A stretch of 19,591 nt of DNA from a virus (taxonomy: Duplodnaviria > Heunggongvirae > Uroviricota > Caudoviricetes): IMG/VR virus record IMGVR_UViG_2713896770_000036; one strand, 5' to 3'. Made by a program: the position numbers. This document shows positions 12,001-15,000 of the stretch, piece by piece (positions within the stretch are counted from its first letter, which is position 1; each line of letters opens with the position of its first letter).

Positions 12001-15000
12001 TGCAGCGCGTACTGGCGTTTTACCAGAATGGTTTTCGAGAGATATTCGGTGAACAGGTTATGCATGAGGGAAATCATGGCACTCAGGGCAGTGTGTAGGC
12101 ACGTTGACGGTAGAAAGCATATGGGGGATCGATCGTTCTTGTTATGCTGTAAGAGCGAAAGCGCAGGCGCTGGGTATCAACAGGATGTTACGGGGTGACT
12201 TTCACTTGAGCTAGTGGGATCAATTTTACTGTTGGGGTGGGGGGACGTTAAGTTGCTGACAATTTCGAAATGTTTTTGATAAAGGCAGCGATTTTCTTTG
12301 ATGGAGGGGCTACAAAAAATTTTTCATGTGAAATATGATATCTGCGATGTTATCAAATGTGAAAATATTTATGAATCTGCAAAAAAGAAGAAAAGTTCAA
12401 AAACTAAACTATCGCGGGCAAGTTTCGAAACTGAAGAGGGGGATATTTAATTCTCTGAAAAGCACGGATTGGGAAGGAGTAGAAAATGCGAAGAGAAAAC
12501 TGGAATATTACAAACGCACTCGTAAGCTACGAGTCTCGAAGAAAAAGTTGACAACAAGTAATAAAAGGGTGGTTTTTTCTGCTCCGATATCTATTAATTA
12601 TTACAACGATCGTGATTTTGAAATCATGAATAAATTTTTAAATAATTTACGCGATTGCGTGTTGAAGAATAATCGTGTTTATATAGATTTTTCTTCAACT
12701 AAATATATAAGTGCAGCTGCTATGTTATCTTTTCTCGCTGAAGTTGATGTGCTTATTAAGAAAAGTGAATTTGGAGTAAATGCCATAGGGTTTTCACATC
12801 CGAAAGACAAGAAAATTGAAAGCATTTTGAATCAAGTCGGTTTCTATGATCTATTAAGGAAACCTAAAAGAGAAACTGAAAGTTATGATGATGTGACTTT
12901 TTGGAAATATACATCAGGTTCTTGTTCTGAGCCTCTTTTAGCAAAAGAAATGATGGTGGAAATAAAAAAAGAGTTAGAAAGAAAATCATCAAAAAAATTA
13001 TACCGTGGCTTTACTGAGGCCATGTCTAATTCTGTCGAGCATGCTTATGTTGATGATTTTATGCATACGGAAGATGACGAAACAGCTAAGTGGTGGACCT
13101 TTGCTGGCATACATGACAAAAATCTTACAGTGGTAATATGTGATAAAGGAGTGGGAATACCTTCAACATTGCCTAAAACACAAGGTGTAAGTGTGCTAAT
13201 GAACATCTTCAAAAAACTTAGAGTTCCATTAGCAAATGTAAAGGATTCTACTTATATAAAGGCTTCCACGTTACTTCAGGAAACGAGGACTGGGGAGCTG
13301 AACCGAGGTAAAGGCTTGAATGATATCAAATCGGTAATCGATTCAATAGGTGATGGTTTTATGGGGATTTTTTCATCAAAAGGGCGCTATATTTACAAAG
13401 GGAAAACTGGCATTATTAACGAAGTGCTTAGAGATTACAAAAGCTCTGTTAATGGTACTATAATTGAATGGACAATTCCTTGTGAGGTGGAAACTGAGTA
13501 GTATGAAAATTATAAAAGTAGCCAGTCGTTATCCTTGCCCAGGACCTCGTTTTAAAAGATTGGGGCCCGCTTCTGGTGAGGAGTTTCGTGAGTGGGTAGA
13601 AAGAGAGCTTAAACATTCACCAGATCTAACAATAGACCTTGATGGAACGGAGGGGTATGGTTCTTCTTTCTTGGAGGAGTGCTTTGGCGGATTGATTAGG
13701 CGTGGCGTGAGTCCTGATAAGGTTAAAGGGATTAAATTTATCTCAGAAGAAGAACCTGAGTTAATTGACGAGATAAATGAATATATCGAGGACGCTATAA
13801 AGGTATCTCATGGCTAATTCAAGTATCCAGGTCTGTACTTGGAGTGCAGACTTTTGGTGTAAGTTTTTTTCTTTGTTTAAAGATGAAAATCAGTATGTAA
13901 CTTGGTTTTTAGTTTTAGTTGGATGGGGGATTACGGCATATATTGCTTATCTCCAAACCACAAAAAGTAGAGGAGATGCTATTAAAGATGCTCATAATGA
14001 ATGGATCGGTGAGTTTAGACAAAAACTGGAGTTGCTTGAGGATTTTGCCTTAGAGTTCTGGGCTGAAGATAATAATAAAGAACCTACACTGGCGTTAGCA
14101 AAAATGAGTAGGGAGGTTAAGAGTTTAACTACTATCGCTAAAGAAATTGAAAGGGCCGGTGGTGAAAAATATAAGGCAAAATTGTTTAAGGAATTACGCC
14201 AAGCCATGACATATGATAGTGATGTTCACAACCGACCTCTAAGACCTGATTGTATGCAAATTGTTAGGATTAGAGAAACATGTGCAAGTTTGAGAAGTGC
14301 GTACGGGCGCAAAAGCTTGACTGAATAACCTCATATTGCTGAGTAGCTGGTACTGCATATTATTATGAAAACACATCGTGGTTTTTATATAAAAGCTGCT
14401 TATTATTAAGAGATCTGTTTTATGTTTTTGGCTAGTAAAATGTGATTCTTAACTTAAATGTTCCCTTACACTAGATTTATAATATCATCGTGTGATTTAT
14501 AAACTATGCATTAGTAATAATTAATTTTTCGGAAAAATAGTTAAGTAAAATTGCTGCGTGTGCTTGAGGCTATCTGCCTCGGGCATGAACACCAACGGCA
14601 GATAGAGAAAAGCCCAGTTAACATTACGCGTCCCGCAAGACGTTTAATATTAAACTTAGGCCAATTTCATGCTAGACACATGGATGTTAGCCTCTTACGT
14701 GCCGAAAGGCAAGGAGAAGCAGGCTATGAAGCAGCAAAAGGCGATGTTAGTCGCCCTGATCGTCATCTGTTTAACCGTCATAGTGACGGCACTGGTAACG
14801 AGGAAAGACCTCTGCGAGGTACGAATCCGAACCGGCCAGACGGAGGTCGCTGTCTTCACAGCTTACGAACCTGAGGAGTAAGAGACCAGGCGAGGGAGGA
14901 ATCCCTCGCCACCTCTGATGTGTCAGGCATCCTCAACGCACCCGCACTTAACCCGCTTCGGCGGGTTTTTTGTTGCGTGCTGAATGCGTAGGGTGAAAAA

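Follow-up and report, generated by a model that had tools for sequence, protein, structure and literature searches.

The subject of this study is a cassette of three genes in IMG/VR virus record IMGVR_UViG_2713896770_000036, a stretch of 19,591 nucleotides (nt) from a virus of the Caudoviricetes that was analyzed as a whole and is referred to below as the window. The genes, designated g1, g2 and g3, encode a kinase-like protein with a GHKL ATPase domain, a small STAS-like protein and a single-pass membrane protein, respectively (Table 1). The trio is best regarded as a variant of the VapKSC-type system and not as categorically new, but its third gene differs. By analogy with VapKSC, we put at about one in two the probability that the cassette is a mobile-element conflict module of VapKSC-like build, which would provide defense or superinfection exclusion by abortive infection through a membrane effector. 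The broader proposal, that it is a conflict or defense cargo module using a kinase–STAS switch, can be put forward with good confidence. That the trio would serve anti-phage defense is suggested by the contexts in which it is found.

All three open reading frames (ORFs) lie in tight coupling. They had been delimited, together with their junctions, in a preliminary description of the window, and this layout was confirmed: the stop codon of g1 and the start codon of g2 form the string TAGtATG at positions 13499-13505, and g2 and g3 overlap by 8 nt at positions 13810-13817. The translational coupling proposed there is likewise supported. On contigs with g1 homologues, these three genes recur in an unchanged order, and in all 16 loci checked, which span Vibrio, Marinobacter, a metagenome-assembled genome of the Thiohalomonadaceae and Arcobacter among others, neighboring genes either overlap or lie no more than 20 nt apart. 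This conservation of the trio is beyond chance. The guanine-plus-cytosine (GC) content of the whole cassette amounts to 37%, as compared with ~49% in the flanks; in successive 500-nt segments it ranges from 31 to 39% inside the cassette and is about 50% on either side.

The start of g1 had been placed at position 12335. The reading frame is indeed open from there, but translation more probably starts at the ATG at position 12371. We took the latter as the start because in a Cronobacter cassette that is 82% identical an ATT occupies the position of the ATG at 12335, while the ATG of 12371 is conserved. The resulting 376-amino acid (aa) form is the product given by the Prokaryotic Genome Annotation Pipeline (PGAP) and the entry recorded in the protein collection. 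No obvious Shine–Dalgarno sequence precedes either ATG. Since ~100 nt ahead of the ATG at 12371 can be aligned with the Cronobacter cassette, which has different surroundings, the cassette probably comes with an upstream region of its own.

g1 is a member of the GHKL superfamily, with N, G1 and G2 boxes following each other in this order inside an α/β sandwich. The four motifs by which it had first been recognized (TEAMSNSVEHA, ICDKGVGIP, NRGKGLNDI and VNGTIIEW) were all found in the protein, and its assignment to the SpoIIAB/RsbW type of kinase-like proteins was borne out by the predicted structure. When the AlphaFold2 model of g1 (built on an alignment of 68 relatives; mean predicted local distance difference test score, pLDDT, 84.5; predicted template modeling score, pTM, 0.84) was compared with the PDB using Foldseek, SpoIIAB (1l0o_A) ranked first with a probability of 1.00 and a TM(target) of 0.74, followed by CheA P4 and GyrB. 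Within the N box, which aligns with the VapK segment EIYANSFEHS, residues E216, N220, E223 and H224 are invariant in the 68 relatives, as are the other two boxes. Judged by these residues, the ATP site of g1 is intact. The preliminary description had also looked to a profile search for a GHKL-family match. Taken alone, g1 gave sub-threshold matches to HATPase_c and HATPase_c_2 (Pfam; E about 0.02) and faint ones to RsbW and SpoIIAB in NCBIfam, whereas 57 of the 68 relatives matched HATPase_c_2, each below the Pfam cut-off, and 53 matched HATPase_c. The unannotated phage family phrog_3364 matched g1 at 5e-46. Single-sequence PDB searches with g1, g2 and g3 returned chance matches only, and the g1 family profile retrieved only RsbW from the PDB, at an E value of 0.9. 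The family is large: a word-index search found 125 relatives of g1, and a library of 50%-identity cluster representatives contained 999 members at E≤1e-30 and 2662 at E≤1e-10.

In the model, the sandwich is preceded by long N-terminal helices (residues 3-50) and an α/β domain (residues 66-183). The N-terminus of g1 had been called rich in lysine and arginine, in keeping with the net charge of its first 65 residues; the family median for this region is +15. A Pfam search of g1 and of the 68 relatives yielded no helix-turn-helix (HTH) family match. For the STAS-like segment that had been proposed in g1, the order of the predicted fold and analogy argue in favor, and the middle domain may on these grounds be regarded as STAS-like. 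Sequence statistics did not bear this out, as a faint DUF4325 match was seen in 3 and a STAS match in 1 of the 68 family members, and profile comparison of the g1 and g2 families by hhalign was not significant. Within this domain, 68/68 relatives have Ser or Thr at the position of Ser114 (12710-12712), just behind a conserved Ile, and 65/68 retain Thr110 (12698-12700). VapK has an Arg at the position of Ser114 according to a manual alignment, the alignment to canonical STAS being without statistical support. Conceivably, Ser114 or Thr110 could be a site of autophosphorylation or a pseudo-substrate site.

The description of g2 as STAS-like was upheld by its match to Pfam PF14213 (DUF4325), which at 45.6 bits (cut-off 23; E 5.6e-12) lies well above threshold. 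The motif G-Y-G-S-S-F-L-E-E-x-F-G-G-L is nearly unchanged in 14 diverse g2 homologues, and Ser55 is invariant in all 14 of these trio members. Pfam searches detected neither a winged HTH (wHTH) nor another DNA-binding domain in g2, which is only 104 aa long.

g3 has no family match in Pfam, PADLOC or NCBIfam. It was correctly described as a single-pass protein: one hydrophobic segment is present, and a comparable segment, followed by residues rich in lysine and arginine, was found in all 13 g3 homologues inspected. The AlphaFold2 model (pLDDT 84.9) has the transmembrane helix running unbroken to residue 85 and into an all-helical bundle, which by the positive-inside rule should be cytoplasmic. 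A protein of the g3 family lies downstream of g2 in every locus checked. Profile searches recover divergent subfamilies of g3, and homologues with as little as 11-20% identity have kept the transmembrane segment and an L-R-x-A-x-T motif.

Table 1. The three-gene cassette and its parts, with positions in the 19,591-nt window
Feature	Position	Strand	Basis or remark
Upstream intergenic region of the cassette	12099..12370	+	no convincing sigma-70 site by consensus scan
g1, 376-aa STAS-like and GHKL kinase-like protein	12371..13501 (alternative start 12335)	+	PGAP 'ATP-binding protein', WP_244466804.1
g1 basic N-terminal region, residues 1-65, two long helices, net charge +18	12371..12565	+	AlphaFold2 helices 3-31 and 34-50
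g1 middle α/β domain, residues 66-185, STAS-like by fold order	12566..12925	+	AlphaFold2 order β-α-β-α-β-α-β
g1 GHKL (Bergerat-fold) domain, residues about 205-372	12983..13486	+	Foldseek SpoIIAB, hhalign VapK, HATPase_c_2
g1 N box, E216-Y226 (EAMSNSVEHAY)	13016..13048	+	N220, predicted Mg-ATP ligand
g1 G1 box, D258-x-G260-x-G262	13142..13156	+	invariant in 68/68
g1 G2 box, R312-G-K-G315	13304..13315	+	invariant in 68/68
g2, 104-aa STAS-like protein, Pfam DUF4325	13503..13817	+	PGAP 'STAS-like domain-containing protein', WP_000691548.1
g2 Ser54-Ser55 in GYGSSFLEE, predicted phospho-acceptor	13662..13667	+	S55 invariance; VapS Ser48 aligns to S54
g3, 172-aa single-pass membrane protein, predicted effector	13810..14328	+	PGAP 'hypothetical protein'
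g3 transmembrane helix, residues about 28-50	13891..13959	+	Kyte-Doolittle 19-residue maximum 1.73 at residues 30-48
g3 four-helix bundle, predicted cytoplasmic	13960..14301	+	AlphaFold2 model

Recurrence of the trio at mobile-element cargo sites

The same 2.25 kb were found at ≥99.9% identity in 24 of 5426 complete Escherichia coli genomes (RefSeq), all copies being chromosomal, and the g2 sequence of the window is recorded on at least 1000 contigs. The region corresponds in E. coli strain F2_407_2_2 to a Rac-like lambdoid prophage integrated beside yebY, with the gene order int, xis, ralR, exo, bet, gam, recE pseudogene, kilR, repressor region, ydaV, DUF1627, DUF977 and the trio, followed by hokD, DUF1367 (NinB-like), DUF1364 and DUF1133. 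The view that the cassette occupies a prophage hotspot beside hok thus holds, since it lies between DUF977 and hokD/ninB and the site is variable across strains. Other E. coli lambdoid prophages (loci L028, L029 and L030) carry different cargo in the interval between DUF977 and hokD (12099-14725 in the window), including an 816-aa P-loop nucleoside triphosphatase (NTPase), a SMEK protein with a methyltransferase, and DUF5677, QueH, KilA-N, DUF551 and DUF7167 proteins. A SMEK-domain protein is the validated system DS-27 (DefensePredictor Table S6). The accession of another validated entry of that table, DS-14 (WP_040091717.1, 2451 bp), is next to that of the DUF977 protein of strain KK19-02, and the neighbor of this DUF977 gene is a 2451-bp gene for a P-loop NTPase. 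This suggests, as judged only by length and adjacent accession, that the defense gene DS-14 occupies the same site. The low GC content of the cassette and the variability of the DUF977–hokD site are signs of horizontal transfer.

Beyond this site, cargo sites of gammaproteobacterial mobile elements repeatedly harbor the trio, and in almost every host the GC content of the cassette is below that of its flanks. In Pantoea the trio occupies the P2 old/tin site, flanked by gpA/DinI and the portal gene, and Klebsiella and Raoultella carry it in P4-like satellites. In 186-like prophages of Citrobacter and others, the lysogenic operon contains the trio between cI and int, 13 nt behind cI and directly adjoining int, and in Marinobacter phage AS1, an isolated temperate phage, the trio comes immediately after a putative repressor gene divergent from cro. 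The Cronobacter copy lies beyond int of a lambdoid prophage, beside HsdR and a ZorC gene, and that of Citrobacter amalonaticus is located at a prophage end. On a metagenomic contig the trio follows a type I restriction–modification (R-M) system and the PADLOC candidate PDC-S11, while in a Vibrio fluvialis island it is accompanied by HipA, RadC and, in one strain, IetA. Other E. coli prophages carry the trio on the opposite strand between the Q antiterminator and the holin; two such copies, which are divergent, were located at 5413-7279 of the E. coli PSUO2 locus (L034) and at 5147-7022 of the E. coli p10A locus (L035). It is here that Shiga toxin (Stx) phages carry stx. The sole case on an apparently plain chromosome was seen in Aeromonas, near parC/parE. 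A scan of genomes for relatives returned 8 loci only. A megablast search of the phage collection gave no match to the cassette, and at the protein level Marinobacter phage AS1 was the only phage retrieved from it.

Two of these loci showed further features. In the Vibrio fluvialis island (L002, positions 10102-11455, and the same in L003 and L004), the full trio is immediately followed by a second one, a 'mini-trio'. Its genes encode a GHKL-only protein of 193 aa, which has neither the basic nor the STAS-like part, a DUF4325 protein of 110 aa in which the GFGSSFLEEAFGGL motif recurs, and a single-pass membrane protein of 147 aa that can be aligned with g3. The mini-trio suggests modular duplication, perhaps with a sensor that is shared by both trios. 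In Cronobacter (L021, 9175-11927), unannotated proteins of 567 and 350 aa are encoded directly after the trio, before resolvase and reverse-transcriptase genes. Neither had a PADLOC match, and the pair may be another uncharacterized cargo system.

Relation to VapKSC, CapK–CapS and catalogued systems

The VapKSC system consists of the kinase VapK, the STAS antitoxin VapS and the PIN toxin VapC (Chambers et al., EMBO J 2026, PMC13373217). VapK, which combines STAS and GHKL domains, phosphorylates VapS on Ser48, a residue found to be essential by experiment, whereupon VapC is released; the system gave about 2-log protection against phage Bas42 (PMC13373217). It thereby offers an experimental precedent for the idea, put forward in the preliminary description, of a switch between kinase and antagonist that is wired to an effector. 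The resemblance to the trio starts with the gene order, namely a STAS+GHKL kinase (the STAS part of g1 being predicted from fold order), a small DUF4325 STAS protein and, as the third gene, an effector (a predicted one in the case of g3). Using the VapK and VapS sequences from the supplementary model file of PMC13373217, we found that VapS (E 2.7e-17) belongs to DUF4325 like g2, and that VapK, like g1, has only a sub-threshold HATPase_c match. The GHKL domain of VapK aligned to the g1 family profile with an hhalign probability of 95.2% (E 2.6e-8). Furthermore, in both small proteins the same helix begins with a conserved serine, Ser48 of VapS aligning with Ser54 of g2, which adjoins the invariant Ser55. 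VapKSC is also located near other defense genes, as is the trio. The link is at the level of profiles and Pfam families only: pairwise BLASTP of g1 and g2 against VapK and VapS was insignificant, and hhalign of the g2 family against VapS was weak (probability 25%, E 8e-4).

The third gene, by contrast, does not specify a PIN nuclease but a membrane protein that has one transmembrane pass and a helical bundle. Moreover, g1 has an extra basic N-terminal region of ~65 residues that is absent in VapK, and the STAS halves of the two kinases did not align in hhalign. The vapKSC operons of the published study were chosen by the presence of vapC, and a membrane variant is never mentioned there (PMC13373217).

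In the related CapK–CapS pair, CapK (HTH+STAS+GHKL) phosphorylates CapS (STAS+wHTH) on a conserved serine in response to single-stranded DNA (ssDNA), and the pair represses a downstream immune operon of the CBASS, Bub or Thoeris type (PMC13373217). The trio shares with it a GHKL kinase that contains an internal STAS domain (in g1, one predicted from fold order) and a separate STAS protein with a conserved serine, the residue that CapK phosphorylates in CapS. It differs in that neither the N-terminal HTH of CapK nor the C-terminal wHTH of CapS is present in g1 or g2, and in that the variable immune operon downstream is replaced by a fixed, overlapping gene for a small membrane protein. It is therefore the absence of DNA-binding domains from g1 and g2 that essentially rules out a transcriptional regulator pair of the CapK/CapS type, in which g2 would be a phospho-regulated repressor of the downstream gene: CapK and CapS are the founding relatives of the kinase–STAS pairing and lie upstream of the genes they control, but the 8-nt overlap of g2 and g3 leaves no room for an operator or promoter and what follows is invariably the gene for this one small membrane protein instead of varied immune operons.

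The best structural match of the g1 GHKL domain belongs to the SpoIIAB–SpoIIAA and RsbW–RsbV modules, in which the substrate is likewise a STAS-type protein with a serine. The preliminary description had named a chromosomal housekeeping module as the alternative to a mobile one. In contrast to such modules, no gene for a sigma factor or a PP2C phosphatase was found in the Pfam-annotated neighborhoods of the loci examined, g1 bears STAS-like and basic domains of its own, and the distribution is on mobile elements, with chromosomal-type placement seen once only, in Aeromonas. A housekeeping partner-switching module was therefore rejected.

Among earlier catalogues, the hotspot survey of Rousset et al. 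(2022, PMC9122126) lists at P4 hotspots a cluster 69, 'HATPase_c | DUF4325', with nine occurrences and three proteins, the third marked '1 TM'. Its three-protein architecture is that of the trio, and its kinase matches the g1 family over the STAS and GHKL parts (hhalign 99.5%, E 1e-22). It represents a divergent subfamily at P4 and apparently also P2 hotspots and is given as hotspot content. The survey also has several P2-hotspot entries of the type 'hypothetical + hypothetical + DUF4325', which were compared by their annotation strings only. In the searched portion of the supplement of PMC9122126, DUF4325 was found in just two tables of hotspot content, and there was no sign of a functional test of cluster 69. 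The trio had been said to match no named defense system, and PADLOC v2 indeed had no match for any of the three proteins; Rst_3HP and any PD-T4 or PD-λ system were rejected for this reason. The further label 'undescribed' applies with reservations only, since the kinase–STAS pair has a described relative in VapKSC and a homologous trio was already catalogued (Rousset et al. 2022).

Proposed working and competing explanations

Combining these observations, we propose the following working model. In the uninfected lysogen, g2 would bind the cytoplasmic four-helix bundle of g3 and keep it inactive. A cue associated with infection, which may be nucleic acid sensed by the basic N-terminus together with the STAS/GHKL interface, would then activate g1, and g1 would phosphorylate g2 on Ser55 (or Ser54). 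Phosphorylated g2 would release g3, and freed g3 would self-associate in the inner membrane and collapse membrane integrity or potential, so that growth of the infected cell would stop before the cycle of the invader is complete. Since the trio sits in the repressor operons of 186-like phages and of AS1, expression in lysogens is to be expected, as for superinfection exclusion.

A functional analogy is provided by RexA/RexB of phage lambda, an exclusion system that is expressed from the prophage and linked to its repressor, in which a cytoplasmic sensor activates a depolarizing membrane protein. There is no relation in sequence or fold, as RexA/RexB has no kinase or STAS part and RexB has four transmembrane segments. 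More tentatively, with the odds slightly against it, the trio may represent a whole, widespread family of immune modules of phages, satellites and islands, in which a nucleic-acid-sensing SpoIIAB-like kinase would phosphorylate a STAS protein on serine and thereby unleash a small viroporin-like membrane protein.

Several observations weigh against the working model. The g3 model is a generic bundle in which no pore or enzyme fold can be recognized. Aligned with VapS, g2 stops ~20 residues short and has no counterpart of the C-terminal helix with which VapS blocks the active site of VapC, and the geometry of inhibition therefore cannot match that of VapKSC. At the position of the aromatic residue involved in ssDNA sensing (F54 of VapK, W68 of CapK), g1 has Y112 by manual alignment; because an aromatic residue is present here in only 16/68 relatives, as against Lys in 22/68, the trigger of g1 may differ from the ssDNA sensing of VapK and CapK. 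A consensus scan for sigma-70 promoters returned a number of sites not above that in shuffled sequence, and none upstream of g1. PADLOC-DB v2.0.0 (2023), which predates VapKSC, has no model for g1, g2 or g3, the best E values of 0.026-0.039 being to unrelated models. Finally, the DefensePredictor unit VPUS, a 1871-bp segment of an ECOR strain (NZ_QOYT01000008.1:24729-26599; proteins WP_000060412.1, WP_001244589.1 and WP_000154254.1) annotated as 'hypothetical, STAS-like domain-containing, hypothetical', was predicted to be defensive (log-odds 5.75), but after cloning and expression from pBAD in MG1655 it was scored defensive=FALSE (DefensePredictor Table S6). The size and annotation of VPUS fit the trio better than VapKSC, but its membership in the g1-g3 family is not confirmed, and we take its score as a caution and not as a result for the family. 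If VPUS does belong to it, defense by the trio is at least not broad.

One competing explanation is a reversed wiring, which we consider unlikely. Here, g3 would serve as a membrane sensor or anchor that responds, for example, to DNA injection or envelope perturbation, g2 as the anti-kinase partner-switch protein and the kinase g1 as the effector, which upon release would phosphorylate phage or host proteins or sequester a target and so block infection. Such an arrangement would suit the plain fold of g3, which does not look toxic, and the precedent of classical SpoIIAB and RsbW, in which the kinase is also the binder of the output target, SpoIIAB being the protein that the GHKL domain of g1 resembles most. 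The N-terminus of g1, which is basic (net charge +18), could moreover reach a target bound to nucleic acid. However, the loci examined encode neither a sigma factor nor any other candidate for such a target, and the only characterized relatives, CapKS and VapKSC, use the STAS protein both as kinase substrate and as inhibitor of the output. The position of g3 also counts against a sensor, since small single-pass proteins that end defense operons are usually effectors.

Equally, it is improbable in our view that the trio is an addiction module, that is, a toxin–antitoxin system responsive to stress or DNA damage that would stabilize the element or tune its induction or lysis, with any anti-phage effect incidental or absent. 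The trio moves among at least 6 different kinds of cargo site, and the elements concerned are unrelated; accessory defense cargo behaves in this way, in contrast to a regulator that is integrated into the circuitry of one phage, and several copies stand beside R-M, Zorya or Iet genes. In favor of an addiction module are the proximity of hok/sok, another addiction-type locus that adjoins the cassette, and the placement in the repressor operons of 186-like phages and AS1, which would suit lysogeny control as well. An addiction role would also be in line with the result for VPUS, a possible relative of unconfirmed membership that was non-defensive in one screen, and the authors of the VapKSC study themselves call the boundary between DNA-damage response and defense blurred (PMC13373217).

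The host prophage and the wider meaning of the cassette

Other features of the window concern the prophage as a whole. Just downstream of the cassette lies the hok/sok type I toxin–antitoxin locus, with the Rfam 'sok' match at 14558-14731 and hokD at 14726-14881. Upstream, the DUF1627 gene (10808-11621) is split into two ORFs and is frameshifted according to PGAP; the prophage is therefore partly decayed. The recE gene (about 4315-6330, minus strand) likewise carries the annotation of a pseudogene, in truncated form. Small RNAs are numerous in the window, as seen from Rfam matches (463-607, 2169-2347, 7345-7396, 16900-17101, 17876-17935 and 18022-18277). This set comprises SraC/RyeA with SdsR/RyeB at the chromosomal edge, followed by RalA, DicF, the C4 antisense RNA with its a1b1 target, isrK, STnc100 and AgvB. 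Rfam also finds a tRNA, which is named tRNA-Met by PGAP.

If the trio does represent a family of immune modules of the kind outlined above, the kinase–STAS switch of CapKS and VapKSC would be a general, exchangeable trigger for a repressor, a PIN nuclease or a membrane disruptor, and the basic N-terminal domain and the invariant Ser/Thr in the STAS-like domain of g1 would point to a trigger and an auto-regulation unlike those of VapK. Confirmation of our model would add membrane attack as a third output of the phospho-switch, would support the notion that immune sensors and effectors recombine freely, and would account for cargo that is repeatedly seen in the well-studied P2, P4 and lambdoid hotspots. 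As a small system of only three proteins, the trio would be a tractable model for the gating of an abortive-infection effector by phosphorylation. In addition, such cassettes in prophages and satellites of enterotoxigenic E. coli, Shiga toxin-producing E. coli and Klebsiella could affect the host range of therapeutic phages.

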